Virus record (IMG/VR): IMGVR_UViG_2693429642_000022 | Coordinates: 1-5,325 of that record | Length of the DNA stretch: 5,325 nucleotides | DNA from: a virus | Lineage: Duplodnaviria; Heunggongvirae; Uroviricota; Caudoviricetes | Reading direction: 5' to 3' (one strand) | In this document: positions 1-5,325 of the stretch, piece by piece | Numbering within the stretch: position 1 is the stretch's first letter | Layout of the letters: each line of letters begins with the position of its first letter | Notes under the pieces: model-generated | What the model saw: only the letters and a program-made list of their open reading frames with translations | Databases searched by the model: none | What the model was told of the DNA's origin: nothing | Translations under genes and position numbers: made by a program

Positions 1-151
1 AGAAGGGCAGTATGTCAGCAGTATTTTGCTGTGCGAAAACATCTATCCGGTACGCCAGGAACTCTATTTTGGCATGGTGGTGAATCGTGAAAGCCAGCGG
101 GTCACGTTTATTGTCAGCCCGGAAGGTGGTGTGGAAATTGAAAAAGTCGCC
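1..151 (+). pseudogene. 3'-truncated fragment of a succinyl-CoA synthetase beta subunit (SucC)-like ATP-grasp gene, entering the window from the left
   Basis: Seen: the plus frame is open from base 2 and translates [50 protein letters not shown]. Recalled: this closely parallels the E. coli SucC segment [31 protein letters not shown]. Seen: the resemblance stops at base 151, where the endolysin stop codon sits on the other strand; the ORF-track frame then runs on to 226 as antisense of the endolysin 3' end. Only about 70 percent nucleotide identity to E. coli sucC is estimated, so this is a divergent homologue or paralogue. Confidence 0.5.
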
Positions 152-685
152 TTATCTGTCAATTCCCCAGCACGCCAGCGCACTCTCCTGGTCACGACGG
201 GATACCTGACCGTAACAGTTATTTGAGCGAATACGGCAGTCTCTGCCACCGTCCTTAATCCACCAGCGAATCGCCTCGCATGCTCCCCTGCGATCACCAG
301 CATTAATTCGTCTGTAAAACGTCGACGGGAAACACTTACCGGGACCAATGTTGTACGGACAGAATGACGCGATCCCCGCTTTCTGGGGTTCGGTCAGCGG
401 CACTCTGATGTTTTTCTCCACCCACGCCAGCGCTTTATCACGCTCAATGGCGTTAACCTGGTCGCATTTTTCCTTCGACAACTTCATGCCCGGAACGACA
501 GGTTTACTATCCACCAGGATGGCACCGCGGCAGATGGTCCAGATACCCGCGCCATCACGGTATGCCGTGGTGTGGTTACCTTCCTTTTCATCCAGAAACT
601 GGTCGAGGATTTCAGGCGCAGGCGCACCTGCGGCAATCAGCGCCAGAACGGCAGCCGACAGGCCGTATTTGATTTTGGTGTTCAT
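152..685 (-). CDS. R: SAR endolysin (phage-21 R-type, T4-lysozyme-like muramidase), 177 aa
   Basis: Seen: 177-aa ORF with a weakly hydrophobic Gly/Ala-rich N-terminal segment [16 protein letters not shown], as in a signal-anchor-release domain, followed by the catalytic triad spacing E-x8-D-x5-T ([16 protein letters not shown]). Recalled: near full-length resemblance to the E. coli Qin prophage lysozyme RrrQ/YdfQ. Seen: no Cys inside the SAR segment, which is R21-like, not P1 Lyz-like. No Shine-Dalgarno is evident upstream. Confidence 0.9.
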
Positions 686-735
686 GGATATTTATCAGGG
701 TTTATCGATTTCAAATCCCTGGATATGTTAAGTCT

Positions 736-1080
736 TCAGGCCAGCGGTGGAGTCTTCAGAGAACCAGTAATTATTCCCGGTAGTTTTCCTCTGTAGGTTA
801 TCAACACATCCTGCGCCTCTAAAATTACGGGGCGCTTTTCCGGCAACGGACCATCCCCTTCACATAACCCGGCAGCAACATCCATGAAAAACTGCTTCGC
901 CTGCTTTTTCGCCTCAGCTTCGTAAAACTCCAGCGTGGCATCTTCAGTACGGTCAAGACTAATCGCCACATCTGGCAACAACAGTGACGGATACCCACCA
1001 ATTTCCAGTGCCACAGTAACAGTAATCTTATTCGGGTAATTATTTATCCCTTTAACAACCAGTTCGTATTTTTTCTTCAT
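736..1080 (-). CDS. ydfR: DUF1327-family protein (YdfR-like), 114 aa, between holin and endolysin
   Basis: Seen: ORF begins 4 nt after the holin stop with a GGGGAGAG Shine-Dalgarno embedded in the holin 3' end. Recalled: sequence (MKKKYELV...EIGGYPSLLLPDVAISLDRTEDA...FFMDVAA...RPVILE..DVLITYRG) and position match the YdfR/DUF1327 proteins of Qin-type lysis cassettes. Confidence 0.75.
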   Translation of the reverse strand: MKKKYELVVKGINNYPNKITVTVALEIGGYPSLLLPDVAISLDRTEDATLEFYEAEAKKQAKQFFMDVAAGLCEGDGPLPEKRPVILEAQDVLITYRGKLPGIITGSLKTPPLA

Positions 1081-1084
1081 CGCT

Positions 1085-1300
1085 TTACTCTCCCCGCGCC
1101 GCCTTACGACGGTCCTCTCTGATTTTGAAATACAGGTTAGTCAGATATGTCAGCAGCCCAAACAACAGACTCCCCAGCACGCCTATTGCCGCCCACTGAG
1201 ACGGGGAAACCCTGTCCAGCAACTGCAGGAACCAGTAGCCCGTTCCCACCGCTGACGTGGTGTATGACACACCTGTTGTGATTTTTTCCATCTGGTACAT
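1085..1300 (-). CDS. S: Class II holin of the phage-21 S type (pinholin), 71 aa with dual-start motif
   Basis: Seen: [71 protein letters not shown] has two hydrophobic segments and a basic C-terminus; a second Met at codon 4 (start at 1291) gives the two-start arrangement; GGGAGA Shine-Dalgarno 6 nt upstream of Met1. Recalled: near-identical over the C-terminal two thirds to phage 21 S (S21-71 antiholin / S21-68 holin). Confidence 0.9.
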
Positions 1301-1375
1301 ACCCCGTCTCCCGTACTCGGAAGCTCACAACAACAAAAGGGCCACCAGCTCTTTACTGATGACCCTGACTCACCG

Positions 1376-1666
1376 TTACAGCATTGTGCCCGATTCTGGC
1401 TGTGTGTCTGTCATATCCGTCACCGGTGGCTCCGGCTGAATATCACCATTTTCCGTGGTGACATCTTCCGCCTGTGGTTCCGGAAGCAGTTCCGGGGATG
1501 GTTCCGGCTGTGCACCAAGCAATTCATCCAGAATTGAATCCACTTCTGCATCAAGACGCGCCTCAAGGTTCTGCCGAAGTTGCTGTTTCAGTGCGCTCCG
1601 GACTTCTTCAGAGCGCAGGACTTCCTTCACTGCCTCAGCAGTGACCAGCGATTTTATTTCTGACAT
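1376..1666 (-). CDS. Hypothetical strongly acidic protein, 96 aa: helical N-terminal half plus Pro/Glu-rich acidic tail
   Basis: Seen: internal ATG of the 154-aa track ORF, 26 nt downstream of the membrane-peptide stop. The product MSEIKSLVTAEAVKEVLRSEEVRSALKQQLRQNLEARLDAEVDSILDELLGAQPEPSPELLPEPQAEDVTTENGDIQPEPPVTDMTDTQPESGTML has about 22 D/E against 7 K/R. Weak Shine-Dalgarno, so translation may be coupled to the upstream ORF. No family recognised. Confidence 0.5.
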   Translation of the reverse strand: MSEIKSLVTAEAVKEVLRSEEVRSALKQQLRQNLEARLDAEVDSILDELLGAQPEPSPELLPEPQAEDVTTENGDIQPEPPVTDMTDTQPESGTML

Positions 1667-1691
1667 AGGATTTTCTCGTTGAAAGGGGTTA

Positions 1692-1886
1692 TTAAGAAGG
1701 TTGTTCCGGAATGAGTGGGGCTTCTGTTTTTGCTCCGGCTGACTGACTGGCGCTGATTTTCTCTGCGGCCCTTTTATCAATCTGCCTGCGCCAGAAATCG
1801 CGCACTGCCCTGTACCCACCCGAAAGAAGATACAGCACACAGACCGCCGTACAGAAGTACAGCATCACCTGATGAACAAATGTCAT
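1692..1886 (-). CDS. Hypothetical small single-pass membrane protein, 64 aa
   Basis: Seen: MTFVHQVMLYFCTAVCVLYLLSGGYRAVRDFWRRQIDKRAAEKISASQSAGAKTEAPLIPEQPS has one hydrophobic helix followed by a basic juxtamembrane stretch and a polar tail. Weak purine-rich ribosome-binding site (AAGAAA). It overlaps, in another frame, the N-terminal extension of the 154-aa track ORF. Confidence 0.4.
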   Translation of the reverse strand: MTFVHQVMLYFCTAVCVLYLLSGGYRAVRDFWRRQIDKRAAEKISASQSAGAKTEAPLIPEQPS

Positions 1887-1982
1887 AGTTTCTTACCGTT
1901 ATGGTTGACAATGAGAACTGTTTTCATTTAAAAACCGATATACGAAAGCATCTTTTCTTTACATTCTCCATTGGGATTACCT

Positions 1983-2019
1983 CCGCCAGCTTCCGTTCCT
2001 GCCGCTGGCGGCTTTTTTT
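1983..2019 (+). terminator. Plus-strand intrinsic terminator-like hairpin with T7 run, immediately 3' of the esterase gene
   Basis: Seen: stem 1983-1990 (ccgccagc) pairs with 2004-2011 (gctggcgg), 13-nt loop, then TTTTTTT at 2013-2019. On the minus strand the hairpin is preceded by an A-run and not followed by a U-run, so it is oriented for plus-strand RNA. Confidence 0.5.
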
Positions 2020-2024
2020 GCCGG

Positions 2025-4013
2025 TTATGATGATGCCCGGCTTTCGTTAACTTTGACTGTGACCGTATCAAGCAGTACCGGATACGTCGCTTTTGCCCCC
2101 GTGATATCTGTCAGCGTCAGCGTATCTGCTGTAAAGCCATCATTTGTCCACATCACAAGGTCAAACGCCGTCTGCTCTGTACCATCAATCACCGGAACGA
2201 CTCTTTCGCTGTTATTTCCCGCAAAGCGGAAAACAACCGTATGCCAGTTATGGTCAAACGCACCAAATGTACCCAGTTGTGCATTCGACGTGCCCTTGTG
2301 GTGCATAAGATTCAGATTTGATGCATCCGTCTGAAGGAAGAATGATGCCAGCATACTGTTTGCTGCCGCGCCTGACGCCCACTGCGACACCGGCCAGTAG
2401 AGACCAAAGACAAACTGTCCGTTCACCAGTTCGCTTCCATCCGGAATTTTGAACCGTACGGCAATTTCACCCCCCTTGCTGAGAAGATTTTTTGCCTCCT
2501 CCACTGCAACAGTACGGAACATTTTCCAGGACGTCAGTTTACCGGGCTGTTTTTCCAGTCGCAGCGCTTTCCGTCCACCGTCATCAGTCACAGTGCCTTT
2601 GCCACCGGCAGCCCCCCACTGCTGCTCTGTCCATACACCATTTCCACTGTTCGCATCATATTCAGCCACCGTCCTGGTACTGCTCACGGCCTCATCATGA
2701 CCAGTACCAGCAACACCGCCATCCTGCGGTTTCTCAACACCCGGTACCCCCGGACTGACATCATCACCGGGAGTTGTACCACCCAACTGCGGTGCGCTCT
2801 GCCCGGTAAGGAACGATAATGTCCGCCCGGCGTACTGCAAAATGGCACCTGCCAGGCGGTCTGAAACAATGCCTCTTCGCGCCCATGAACTGAAGTGCGT
2901 TTTACGATCGGCTGACGTCCAGTTACTGGCAGTGCGTGACGCAGCACCATAGTATCCCGCCGGGATAATGTCCGGATCTTCTGACGGCTCGTTTGTCGGC
3001 ACATTCACACCATGCTCATCCGTCATCAACGGCACAAAGTGAATATTCTGCGCAGCTTTGCCTTTATACCCACCGTAAACCGCCTCATACGGCGCTGCAT
3101 ACCTTTCCTTCCAGTAGTACGTGGTATCACCGCAAATCCACGGGACGCTGGCCGTTGTCCCGCCAGTACACTGCTCTGCCACATCTGCCAGTTCCGTACG
3201 GAACTGATTTACCATGGCAAGGAAAAGCGCATTGTGTTCTGCATGTCTCCCCGAACTGACATCTTTTTCTCCCTGCATCCAAATCACTGATAACAGCACG
3301 TTCTTCGGATTTTTCTTCAGGGCCGCACGGGTTCTGCTGACCAGGTCATAATACAGCGGTTTATCCGCCCCCCACAGGGACGAGCCTGCGGTCGCTCCCG
3401 ACGCTGCGTTAAACGCCCCCTCGGCCCCCGCAGTAAATCCCGAATCGCCACGGCCACATGGAACAAGAAGGATACCCGCATTCGCAGGCATAAACGGCAG
3501 CAGCTTTTTGGCAACATGCAGAGCATGCCCCACACAACCGTACTGCCCTTTATTAAGGTCCGCTTCAGGATGATTCAGGTTACTCATATCCTGCACATCA
3601 TGCAGACAGTGGTCTGCCGGAATGATGTCGTTATATTTACAGGCGGCACCACCCGGCGTCACCGTACTGCGACGCGCCAGCTGTTTAATACGCGGGTCCG
3701 GACGGTCATATGTCTCCGGCAGCGGCAGCCCTTCCCCAAAAGACATTGAGTTTGACTGCCCCGCCAGAACAACAACAAAGTAATACTCCGGTTCGCTGGT
3801 GGTGCTGATAACTGTGCCTTCTCCATCCGACGGCTTCACCACCACAGGTGTGGTGACATCACCTTCCGCCGCAATGGCCTGCATCAGGGTATAAGGCGTG
3901 ATGGCGACAGGGCTGCCAAATGGCTGCCACCCCTCCTTCAGTTTTTGTGTCAGTCGCTCCGCAAGGTCTGACGGCGACGCCGCCCTGACCACATCGTAGT
4001 GTTTAAATGTCAT
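2025..4013 (-). CDS. nanS-p: Prophage-type sialate O-acetylesterase (NanS-p-like): N-terminal DUF1737 domain, SASA/SGNH esterase domain, Gly/Pro/Thr-rich linker, C-terminal beta-rich domain; 662 aa
   Basis: Seen: 662-aa ORF with strong Shine-Dalgarno GGGAGGA; GQSNS motif in VVLAGQSNSMSFGEG. Recalled: GQSN is the nucleophile block of SASA-family esterases, the N-terminus MTFKHYDVV... matches DUF1737, and the architecture and position upstream of the lysis cassette match nanS-p morons of EHEC lambdoid prophages such as 933W. Confidence 0.85.
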   Translation of the reverse strand: MTFKHYDVVRAASPSDLAERLTQKLKEGWQPFGSPVAITPYTLMQAIAAEGDVTTPVVVKPSDGEGTVISTTSEPEYYFVVVLAGQSNSMSFGEGLPLPETYDRPDPRIKQLARRSTVTPGGAACKYNDIIPADHCLHDVQDMSNLNHPEADLNKGQYGCVGHALHVAKKLLPFMPANAGILLVPCGRGDSGFTAGAEGAFNAASGATAGSSLWGADKPLYYDLVSRTRAALKKNPKNVLLSVIWMQGEKDVSSGRHAEHNALFLAMVNQFRTELADVAEQCTGGTTASVPWICGDTTYYWKERYAAPYEAVYGGYKGKAAQNIHFVPLMTDEHGVNVPTNEPSEDPDIIPAGYYGAASRTASNWTSADRKTHFSSWARRGIVSDRLAGAILQYAGRTLSFLTGQSAPQLGGTTPGDDVSPGVPGVEKPQDGGVAGTGHDEAVSSTRTVAEYDANSGNGVWTEQQWGAAGGKGTVTDDGGRKALRLEKQPGKLTSWKMFRTVAVEEAKNLLSKGGEIAVRFKIPDGSELVNGQFVFGLYWPVSQWASGAAANSMLASFFLQTDASNLNLMHHKGTSNAQLGTFGAFDHNWHTVVFRFAGNNSERVVPVIDGTEQTAFDLVMWTNDGFTADTLTLTDITGAKATYPVLLDTVTVKVNESRASS

Positions 4014-4115
4014 GAATCCTCCCGGTCGGGATAATGTTGTGAGTCAGATAAGGAGCGAGCTGAAGTCCGGAAGTTACAGGACAATGGCAGGAGGAAGACT
4101 ACAGCCCGCAATACG

Positions 4116-4140
4116 AAAAAGGCCGCGCAGTTGCGCAGCC
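4116..4140 (-). terminator. Minus-strand intrinsic terminator
   Basis: Seen: minus-strand RNA ggcugcgcaacugcgcggcc forms an 8-bp GC-rich stem (one G-U) with a 4-nt loop (4121-4140), followed by UUUUU (4120-4116). Confidence 0.6.
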
Positions 4141-4195
4141 TTATGAATTCTGGTTAAAATCCATTCGATTATAAAAATGTATATCTCATGCTGTT

Positions 4196-4220
4196 GCCCG
4201 AACCCACTCGGGCTTTTTTT
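4196..4220 (+). terminator. Plus-strand intrinsic terminator, convergent with the minus-strand hairpin at 4221-4251
   Basis: Seen: gcccga (4196-4201) / acccac loop / tcgggc (4208-4213), followed by TTTTTTT (4214-4220). Confidence 0.55.
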
Positions 4221-4251
4221 GCCCACAAGAAAGCCCCTCCGGAGAGGGGCT
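4221..4251 (-). terminator. Minus-strand terminator-like hairpin, conserved element of repeat unit A
   Basis: Seen: perfect 8-bp stem agcccctc/gaggggct with 4-nt loop (4232-4251), followed on the minus strand by UUUCUUGUG (4231-4221). Confidence 0.5.
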
Positions 4252-4480
4252 AAAGCCGCGTATCTGTATCATCATGCACATGGTGCCGGGTGCCTCCCGG
4301 TGAGTTCAGCCCGGTGCCACTAAACCCGCGTCATTCTCGTTTTGATAATCAGAGATTATACCGTCACCAGTCGCCCCTCCGCTCAGGGGGATTCACCATG
4401 CGAAATTTTTTTAACAAATGCCCAGTCTGACAGGCAACTGTCAACTTACTGAATTGTGAGCAACATAGCATTTAACGGGG
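4224..4480. repeat. Repeat unit A of a diverged tandem non-coding element (~255 bp, period ~485 bp)
   Basis: Seen: shares four conserved blocks with unit B in the same order: cacaRgaaagcccctccggagaggggct; gccgggtgcctcccggtgagttcag; ccagtcgc..gcccctccgcNcagggggattcaccatgc; ttttaacaaa..cagtcaac..ctgaattgtgag..aacggg. The stretches between blocks have diverged. Confidence 0.7.
4355..4360 (-). promoter_or_regulatory. Candidate sigma-70 -10 hexamer (TATAAT, minus strand) inside unit A; no convincing -35
   Basis: Seen: plus-strand attata at 4355-4360 is a perfect TATAAT on the minus strand; the -35 position reads gcggag, a poor match. A transcript from here would end at the 4221-4251 hairpin after about 110 nt. 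Unit B lacks this hexamer. Confidence 0.25.
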
Positions 4481-4496
4481 AACCTGTTTTCTGCAG

Positions 4497-4524
4497 TAAA
4501 AAGGCCCACCGGAGCGGATGGGCC
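4497..4524 (-). terminator. Minus-strand intrinsic terminator between repeat units
   Basis: Seen: ggccca (4503-4508) pairs with tgggcc (4519-4524), loop can pair further (cc/gg); followed on the minus strand by UUUUUA (4502-4497). Confidence 0.65.
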
Positions 4525-4710
4525 TAGAAGGATAGCGGTCATGTGATGCCGGTTTCCCGGTAACTCAGCACCGGTATCTGAGTCAACGTTTTCTCTACTG
4601 GGTCATTTCCGATACGCCCTGCCTGCTGACAGGCTTTCATCACATCTGAAAATATAGCACCCTGACTGATACTGTAGTACCTAAGGTTCCAGAAACTGTG
4701 ATGTATCCGG

Positions 4711-4738
4711 CACAGAAAAGCCCCTCCGGAGAGGGGCT
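4711..4738 (-). terminator. Minus-strand terminator-like hairpin, conserved element of repeat unit B
   Basis: Seen: same 8-bp stem / 4-nt loop hairpin (4719-4738), followed on the minus strand by UUUUCUGUG (4718-4711). Confidence 0.45.
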
Positions 4739-4964
4739 GGAGAGTGGCGCTATGTGCCATTGCATGATGCCGGGTGCCTCCCGGTGAGTTCAGTATCAGC
4801 ACCTGAACCCGCACAGAAAGGATAAGGGTCGGTGACAAAACACCAGTCGCTGATTGCCCCTCCGCACAGGGGGATTCACCATGCCAGTTTCTTTTAACAA
4901 ACTCCCCGCAAACCAGACAACAGTCAACCGCCTGAATTGTGAGGTATTTAAAAATTTCAACGGG
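4711..4964. repeat. Repeat unit B of the diverged tandem non-coding element
   Basis: Seen: same four conserved blocks as unit A, offset by 483-487 bp; the hairpin agcccctccggagaggggct is identical in both units. Confidence 0.7.
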
Positions 4965-5053
4965 TAACTGATACCCTGCTAATCGCCTGATGCTTTCTTT
5001 TTCAGCAACGGGAAAGCAACAACCACCACACCCACCAGCCGCCCATTTACCAC

Positions 5054-5081
5054 AAATAAAAAAGCCTTCAGGACTGAAGGC
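5054..5081 (-). terminator. Minus-strand intrinsic terminator overlapping the stop codon of the small wHTH ORF
   Basis: Seen: gccttca (5064-5070) pairs with tgaaggc (5075-5081) around a 4-nt loop; followed on the minus strand by UUUUUUAUUU (5063-5054). Confidence 0.65.
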
Positions 5082-5247
5082 GTCTGTAACAACCGAACTG
5101 ATAGTCTGCCAGCCCCGCCATAACAAGCTGGGTCAGTATTAACTGGCAGCGTTCACGTGAAAGGTAAGTATTCTGCGCAATCTCCCCGACTGTCGCCGGT
5201 TCGGTGGCACTTAATTCATTAAACACCACTCTGGCGGTTTCGGTCAT
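5068..5247 (-). CDS. Possible small winged-helix DNA-binding protein (FaeA/PapI-like fold), 59 aa
   Basis: Seen: ATG at 5247 directly after an in-frame stop; product MTETARVVFNELSATEPATVGEIAQNTYLSRERCQLILTQLVMAGLADYQFGCYRRLQS; codon usage looks coding; stop codon lies inside the 5054-5081 terminator. The ribosome-binding site is poor (AGGA only 1 nt from the ATG) and the ORF is below the 60-aa track cutoff. Inference: the pattern hydrophobic-x-EIA-x-LSR-x-ILxxL-x-G resembles small wHTH regulators. Confidence 0.35.
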   Translation of the reverse strand: MTETARVVFNELSATEPATVGEIAQNTYLSRERCQLILTQLVMAGLADYQFGCYRRLQS

Positions 5248-5325
5248 ATCCTACTGTTTTAGCATGTCTTTTTCCATTTTCTGGTTAACGTAACATACCA
5301 ATAACTCTTGTCGGAAAAGCCAGCA

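Follow-up and report, generated by a model that had tools for sequence, protein, structure and literature searches.

The DNA analysed here (the window: the whole stretch of 5,325 nucleotides (nt), positions 1 to 5,325 of IMG/VR virus record IMGVR_UViG_2693429642_000022) is 99.5% identical to a prophage of Escherichia coli JNEC-KY177 (NZ_AP045173) and is the late region of a lambdoid prophage. Read in the late direction (minus strand), the annotated neighbourhood comprises RusA, a DUF1133 protein at the usual Q position, a small open reading frame (ORF), approximately 1 kb of non-coding DNA and a DUF1737-SASA esterase, downstream of which follow DUF1378, DUF826, a holin, DUF1327 and a lysozyme. 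The non-coding DNA, at the so-called "moron" site, harbours an array of structured elements (4221-4920), most likely three paralogous small RNA (sRNA) genes of the STnc100/PasD group, to be called copies A, B and C; their order along the minus strand is B, C, A. An earlier reading of the same letters (the original prediction) had described two of these elements and located them in the late leader; the annotated neighbourhood indeed places them between the Q-position gene and the lysis genes.

The two elements described originally, unit A (4224-4480) and unit B (4711-4964), are confirmed by a repeat finder as true homologous repeats: their local alignment scores 85, against 9.5 ± 1.3 for 200 dinucleotide shuffles (z = 60). 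The pairwise alignment shows 79% column identity, with conserved blocks alternating with diverged stretches. The block at 4224-4251 and 4711-4738 (93% identity) holds the identical perfect hairpin already noticed in both units, AGCCCCTC-CGGA-GAGGGGCT (4232-4251 and 4719-4738), which on the minus strand constitutes the terminator hairpin of copy A (4251-4232; a perfect 8-bp stem with a T-rich tail) and, in identical form, that of copy B (4738-4719). A second block (4279-4309 and 4763-4793; 97% identity) includes a CCGGG-TGCCT-CCCGG hairpin, and a third, of 88 nt, extends over 4373-4460 and 4856-4943 at 80% identity. An exact 10-nt match (4365-4374 and 4841-4850) is out of register with the remaining blocks.

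The whole window was scanned against all Rfam families. Both units match RF02076 (Gammaproteobacterial sRNA STnc100; gathering threshold 47 bits) on the minus strand far above threshold: copy A, which corresponds to unit A, at 4430-4221 (165.5 bits, E 2e-38) and copy B, which corresponds to unit B, at 4913-4708 (138.1 bits, E 2.1e-31). Each spans the full model, positions 1-206, and each displays the consensus structure of the family, a closing helix around hairpins followed by a 3′ terminator hairpin. Judged by sequence, the element is therefore an already known one, Rfam STnc100, of the EcOnc/PasD group of pathogenic E. coli. The original prediction had left the function open; the family is catalogued and has been described at this very prophage position as Hfq-binding sRNAs. 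Nothing in our analysis points to the antiterminator loading or pause sites that had also been considered. The conservation of the ~255-bp element held, with the amendment that each unit appears to be a gene, consisting of promoter, RNA and terminator, for which the minus strand is the functional one. As the repeats are copies of an already catalogued prophage sRNA gene, the finding is, in this respect, an ordinary one. ARAGORN found no transfer RNA (tRNA) or transfer-messenger RNA genes in the window, on account of which such an origin of the units was rejected, and there was no Rfam tRNA match at E ≤ 1.

The copies number three rather than the two originally counted: the 230-nt "spacer" between units A and B is itself a diverged copy, copy C (4669-4496, minus strand), which matches RF02076 with 28.5 bits (E 0.0023), below the threshold of 47. 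Its fold comprises a closing helix, hairpin 1, a middle hairpin, hairpin 3, a CCGG-GAAA-CCGG hairpin 4 and a strong terminator (4525-4502, minus strand), the strongest of the three copies. With the closing helix alone enforced (4645-4638 with 4548-4541, minus strand; AUGUGAUG/CAUCACAU), the family architecture has a folding energy of -54.8 kcal/mol, compared with -54.9 for the minimum free energy (MFE) structure. Both sides of this helix have changed at three pairs relative to copy A. An extended -10 sequence, TGcTATATT, is located just upstream (4659-4651, minus strand). Among 5426 complete E. coli genomes, 673 (~12%) carry the copy C element, which exists as two alleles; in the 90%-identity allele, the substitutions are concentrated in hairpin 1, the 6-bp hairpin being retained by compensatory changes. 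The retained helices, the good extended -10, the best terminator and the recurrence in 673 genomes lead us to reject the view that copy C is a decayed remnant.

Furthermore, L124 (NZ_CP029973, 1943957-1947128) carries copy C again flanked by two STnc100 copies in the order B-C-A, its allele of copy C scoring 30 bits on RF02076 (E 0.00057). That prophage is unrelated (antiterminator, tRNA-Ile, DUF3927, ..., IraM), and since the array there is accompanied by another antiterminator and followed by another gene (iraM), we suggest that B-C-A moves as a unit between prophage backbones. Among viral contigs, tandem arrays of two to five STnc100 copies are common (three to five above threshold in some), with recurring spacings of 253 and 484 nt. 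Several of the arrays directly adjoin isrI (RF01392), a further Hfq-binding island sRNA (L077, 5220-5316; L038, 8139-8235; L060, 8665-8763; L079, 12541-12637), because of which the STnc100 site looks like a general sRNA island of enterobacterial prophages.

The RNA structure was assessed in a homologue set from more than 120 viral contigs carrying the core 17-mer CACCGGGAGGCACCCGG, which yielded 131 unique copies, onto whose alignment the Rfam structure of copy A was projected to count pairs. Paired cells amount to 78.7%, versus 69.5% in shuffles and 40-50% when the partners are slid, and 638 cells have changed on both sides where 276 are expected. The 8-bp closing helix is paired in 87-99%, with alternative pairs in balanced numbers (AU:58/GC:58 and CG:52/UA:44); changes on both sides are found at 6 of the 7 pairs of hairpin 3 and at all 8 pairs of the terminator stem. 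Covariation thus backs the closing helix, hairpin 1, hairpin 3 and the terminator, while hairpin 4 is invariant because the homologues were collected by the exact 17-mer. Rfam helices 1, 5, 6, 7 and 10 did not hold up, only 28-58% of their cells being paired, to which poor alignment of the variable parts may contribute. The MFE folds reproduce much of this architecture: the closing helix, hairpins 1, 3 and 4 and the terminator for copy A; the closing helix, hairpins 3 and 4 and the terminator for copy B.

No reading frame is conserved among the 131 copies, and no Pfam family was found in the ORFs that overlap the units. An ATG/GTG frame (MVNPP.RRG) opens at the closing helix in 116 of the 131, a candidate for coding that we reject: the length of these frames varies between 5 and over 62 codons, and their peptides cease to resemble one another after some nine hairpin-encoded residues. 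Because of the covariation, the reproduced folds and the lack of both a conserved frame and a Pfam family, we regard the units as structured RNA rather than coding sequence, as the block-wise conservation of stem-loops had originally been read; the compensatory changes in the stems, many of them in the closing helix, hairpin 3 and the terminator, substantiate it. A TTG-initiated ORF of 195 aa (4539-5126, minus strand) extends across copy B as well as two terminator hairpins; lacking any Pfam match and absent from RefSeq annotation, it is almost certainly spurious.

The copies share a covarying scaffold, while hypervariability is confined to an internal segment and to the linker that precedes the terminator. 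Across 53 E. coli-type copies, the mean pairwise identity is 0.96 and 0.82 in the scaffold, 0.41 in the internal segment and 0.39 in the pre-terminator linker. In the folds of A, B and C, the rho-independent terminator with its U tail follows a single-stranded region, an unpaired linker of 15-26 nt; the U tails of copies A and B are interrupted (UUCUUGUG and UUUUCUGUG). In the related sRNA PasD, the seed, supported by RIL-seq (sequencing of ligated RNA pairs), is situated just 5′ of the terminator, and the targets carry a motif that matches it (PMC8550237). By analogy with PasD, and given the hypervariability, the seeds of A, B and C would be located in the linker or the internal segment.

Throughout the family, a sigma-70-like promoter appears to lie immediately upstream of the closing helix. 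For copy A, the predicted promoter (4408-4437, minus strand) consists of a -35 TTGCCT (4437-4432), an 18-nt spacer and an extended -10 TGtTAAAAA (4416-4408), and for copy B (4891-4920, minus strand) of TTGTCT (4920-4915), again an 18-nt spacer and TGtTAAAAG (4899-4891). Rfam positions 1-29 of the E. coli-type copies read as a conserved TTG(C/T)CT, a variable spacer and a conserved TTTGTTAAAA, after which the closing helix begins. TTGCCT and TTGTCT are preferred as -35 elements since they align with the canonical TTGAC-N17-TAAATT that other subfamilies carry at the promoter position of A and B. When a simple sigma-70 score was applied, in which the -10 must end 4-9 nt before the closing helix, 47% of the 131 copies reached a promoter-like score of at least 9 at this fixed position, versus 0.25% of control windows. 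Moreover, the RNA sequencing (RNA-seq) 5′ end of PasD2 coincides with the first base of the homologous closing helix (PMC8550237, Table S6). Taken together, the first ~29 positions of the RF02076 model would seem to represent promoter DNA. The predicted minus-strand transcripts would extend from ~4401 to ~4224 (~178 nt) for A, from ~4884 to ~4711 (~174 nt) for B and from ~4645 to ~4497 (~149 nt) for C.

Two other promoter candidates were rejected. The perfect TATAAT that had been singled out as exclusive to unit A does exist on the minus strand (4360-4355); it lies inside the RNA of copy A, in a non-conserved, hypervariable segment, has no TG or -35 in register, and the conserved promoter is elsewhere. 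TTGACA and TTGACT (4444-4439 and 4927-4922) are 24 nt away from the A-rich -10, and only GCATTT and GAGTTT are found 17 nt downstream of them. Upstream of the -35, a block CTCACAATTCAG (4449-4460 in copy A and 4932-4943 in copy B, minus strand) is conserved at 80% or more among the 53 E. coli-type copies. It includes CUCACA, the motif enriched among PasD RIL-seq targets; this may be fortuitous, reflect a site for a regulator or belong to a longer isoform.

On the opposite strand, an anti-sRNA gene of the AsxR/AgvB family (4166-4218, plus strand) matches RF02703 (AsxR) with 63.0 bits (threshold 63; E 1.3e-08) and RF02702 (AgvB) with 43.4 bits. It is arranged tail to tail with copy A, its end being separated by 3 nt from that of the copy A match (4221), so that the two form a convergent sRNA dyad, between late promoter and lysis genes, of the kind defined by Tree et al. 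(2014). Those authors reported, for at least eight prophages of strain Sakai, convergent genes of Hfq-binding sRNAs that occupy the moron site, downstream of pR′ (PMC4104026); AgvB and AsxR, neighbouring RNAs at the moron site, are sponges (PMC4104026), and the reason for the convergent arrangement has been called unclear in a review (PMC7873438). In the O157 Sakai prophage Sp17, an STnc100 copy is likewise placed tail to tail with AgvB, ahead of the esterase gene. In a Stx2a phage of the same backbone, a methylase, tRNAs and stx2AB are located between the small ORF and a single STnc100, which begins 74 nt after stx2B.

The esterase gene (2025-4013, minus strand), specifying a DUF1737-SASA-DUF6645 sialate O-acetylesterase of the nanS-p type, is the first late gene past the sRNA cluster. 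An intrinsic terminator with a 10-bp stem and a T run (4142-4119, minus strand), conserved in Sakai Sp17 too, separates the cluster from it. On the other side, the small ORF (5068-5247, minus strand; 59-65 aa, a hypothetical protein in RefSeq with a weak winged-helix-like match) is the first gene after the Q-position gene, and a terminator upstream of the array (5081-5064, minus strand) overlaps its last codons.

Some further signals were noted in the window. A promoter-like site TTGCGC-N18-TAAAAT (4131-4160, plus strand) overlaps the minus-strand terminator at 4142-4119. A second minus-strand TATAAT (4168-4173), antisense within the AsxR-like gene, lies ~30 nt upstream of that same terminator and has no conserved counterpart in Sakai Sp17. 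Between the esterase and DUF1378 genes, TTGACA (1905-1910), a 17-nt spacer and TTAAAA are followed, ~60 nt on, by a terminator (1999-2011) with seven T, which makes ~1905-2021 (plus strand) a candidate unannotated sRNA, antisense to the late operon. PasA/PasC of enteropathogenic E. coli (EPEC) E2348/69 was discarded as its identity, the likeness of 1900-2021 (plus strand) being only positional bar a shared GCCAGC terminator stem.

We consider it probable that copies A, B and C are three self-contained, Hfq-associated, trans-acting sRNA genes with a common scaffold and different seeds, the terminators of which also insulate the lysis genes. Each gene would be driven by a weak sigma-70 promoter of its own, with an extended -10, and each RNA, of some 150-180 nt, would fold into an 8-bp closing helix enclosing three to four hairpins, a single-stranded linker of 15-26 nt and an intrinsic terminator. 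The structured 5′ domain would serve as the conserved scaffold, while the hypervariable linker and internal segment could provide copy-specific base-pairing towards host and prophage messenger RNAs or sRNAs. The lysogen would express the RNAs, which would work in trans together with Hfq. A side effect of the three terminators, and of the two at 5081-5064 and 4142-4119, may be to block read-through into the lysis genes unless the polymerase is antiterminator-modified. Our computations show that A and B belong to the family, that covariation backs the RNA structure, that the array recurs and that the copies vary in modular fashion, while the transcription start, the location of the seed and the cis insulation are put forward as likely.

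Several points weigh against this interpretation. Transcription, Hfq binding and trans action at this locus are ascribed by analogy with relatives, and the published literature is without a validated direct target for any STnc100 member. A standard promoter scan of the window returned no minus-strand promoter, and the hexamers are weak, TAAAAA and TAAAAG having no T at -7; the promoter claim is therefore built on positional conservation and not on hexamer quality. The folds of A, B and C have modest z-scores (-1.6 to -2.3). Copy C shows hardly any sequence similarity to A and B (z 2.2 and 4.5) and, at 28.5 bits, is under the RF02076 threshold of 47, for which reasons we treat it as a diverged relative and not as a curated member. 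Finally, the northern sizes of EcOnc05 (~222 nt) and EcOnc27 (~235/247 nt) exceed the promoter-to-terminator prediction (PMC4104026), which requires that additional 5′ ends exist or that longer transcripts are processed.

The alternative that survives best, which we nevertheless judge unlikely, is that the units do their main job in cis, as stacked terminators or insulators that silence the esterase and lysis genes until Q-modified polymerase arrives, the short RNAs being by-products comparable to the lambda pR′-tR′ 6S RNA or StxS. The window is indeed rich in terminator-like sites (10 found versus 1.3 expected), five such minus-strand hairpins occur within the 1 kb ahead of the late genes, the array is downstream of the Q-position gene, and StxS offers the precedent of a terminated late-leader transcript turned sRNA (PMC7873438). 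However, a terminator requires just a hairpin and a U-tract, which leaves unexplained the ~120-nt covarying structured domain upstream as well as the positionally conserved promoter of each unit and the hypervariable segments; nor are the units adjacent to the Q gene, as ORFs, tRNAs or stx genes intervene.

Even less likely, in our estimation, is that the scaffold itself is the active part, a protein-binding or decoy RNA that, for example, sponges host sRNAs or mimics a Shine-Dalgarno sequence through the GGGAGG of the CACCGGGAGGCACCCGG hairpin, and that the variable parts are unconstrained. The neighbouring AgvB and AsxR are sponges, and the motifs GGUGAAUC and CACCGGGAGGCACCCGG are unusually conserved in copies that have otherwise diverged, although only GGUGAAUC counts as an independent observation, since the copy set was collected by exact match to the 17-mer. 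On the other hand, copy C and PasD2 retain the helices without the loop sequences (GAAA for AGGCA in C, GGGAGGCGCC in PasD2), and the defined PasD seed is outside the scaffold. That the blocks are DNA-level sites (a duplicated promoter, an operator or antiterminator-loading sites) or decayed remnants of a protein or tRNA gene, for which the short MVNPP.RRG frame and the occasional RefSeq pseudo-CDS over such loci could be cited, is highly improbable and largely refuted by the variable length and early divergence of that frame, the absence of any Pfam match or tRNA and, above all, the compensatory changes, a signature of RNA pairing and not of DNA sites or codons.

A catalogued sRNA family, at a described sRNA hotspot of Stx-type and related prophages, carries little weight as a discovery, and what we add is incremental: the strand, the diverged copy that makes three, the placement of the promoter, which of the helices are supported, and the modular variation. 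They have practical value nonetheless. RefSeq leaves STnc100 genes unannotated or under a pseudo-CDS, and the family model seems to hold promoter DNA and to miss diverged relatives (copy C, PasD). Pseudogene entries for a "hypothetical protein" were seen over or antisense to STnc100/PasD loci in L002 (3769-3909) and L003 (1698-1939), the sRNA genes themselves not being annotated. The three-gene array, with its distinct variable segments, would be a convenient natural system for locating specificity within the RNA. More speculatively, and with rather low expectation, STnc100-type units could be a cassette system in which a rigid constant scaffold carries two hypervariable windows and two to five units are stacked as a diversified battery of regulators. 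If that were true, copy C would be an unrecognised third lineage beside STnc100 and PasD, the scaffold would have a function of its own (e.g., a partner protein, a stability element or a decoy), and the Rfam family would have to be redefined as a clan, with the promoter taken out of the model.

The closest known relatives of copies A and B are the STnc100/EcOnc sRNAs. EcOnc05, EcOnc06 and EcOnc27 (sRNA103) are northern-verified sRNAs, crosslinked to Hfq in Hfq-CRAC experiments, of enterohaemorrhagic E. coli (EHEC) from this site (PMC4104026, PMC7873438), and overexpression of sRNA103 raises fimZ and espA (PMC7873438). In strain EDL933, 10 of the 11 STnc100 copies have more than 300 RNA-seq reads each and one (STnc100_4) is northern-verified (PMC5331693). 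STnc100 has been found in vesicles of Shiga toxin-producing E. coli (PMC12370729), and variants of the stx2a-adjacent copy are associated with haemolytic uraemic syndrome, a statistical link to disease severity (PMC12711010). Copies A and B resemble these sRNAs in scoring about three times the family threshold over the full model, in their core helices, in their prophage position (behind the late promoter or moron genes, ahead of those for the esterase and lysis) and in having a convergent partner of the AsxR/AgvB type. By eye, the published northern probe for EcOnc06 is complementary to the body of the Sakai Sp17 STnc100 at 34 of 35 positions. Unlike the described STnc100 loci, the array reported here has three tandem genes, one of them diverged and sub-threshold, and stx and tRNA morons are absent.

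STnc100 and PasD of EPEC have a common origin (bioRxiv 10.64898/2026.05.13.724894). PasD is Hfq-associated, has many RIL-seq partners and was probed on northerns in an hfq deletion strain (PMC8550237). PasD1 and PasD2 of EPEC E2348/69 (EcOnc13 in EHEC) show the same architecture of closing helix, hairpins, linker and terminator and occupy the same neighbourhood, directly upstream of the SASA esterase gene. PasD2 reaches only 41.4 bits on the STnc100 model, below threshold, and we therefore assign A and B to STnc100 proper and not to PasD. The sequence identity of PasD2 with A, B and C is confined to the surroundings of the GCAUGGUGAAUCC start, and the PasD seed UGUGAG is absent from the linkers of all three, which at the sequence level are not identifiable as PasD. 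Copy C, like PasD, is a relative of STnc100 placed outside the family by the curated cut-off.

Set against the AsxR/AgvB dyads, the elements described here represent the partner RNA of the dyad and not the anti-sRNA; the AsxR-type gene of the window differs slightly from AsxR in its 5′ variable region and scores exactly at the model threshold. The 6S RNA of the lambda pR′-tR′ region and StxS are likewise short, constitutively terminated RNAs between Q and the late genes that are read through under Q. Transcription of both begins at pR′, immediately behind Q, and neither has a separate promoter, whereas the STnc100 units are found further downstream, behind other genes, and each is preceded by its own promoter-like signal.

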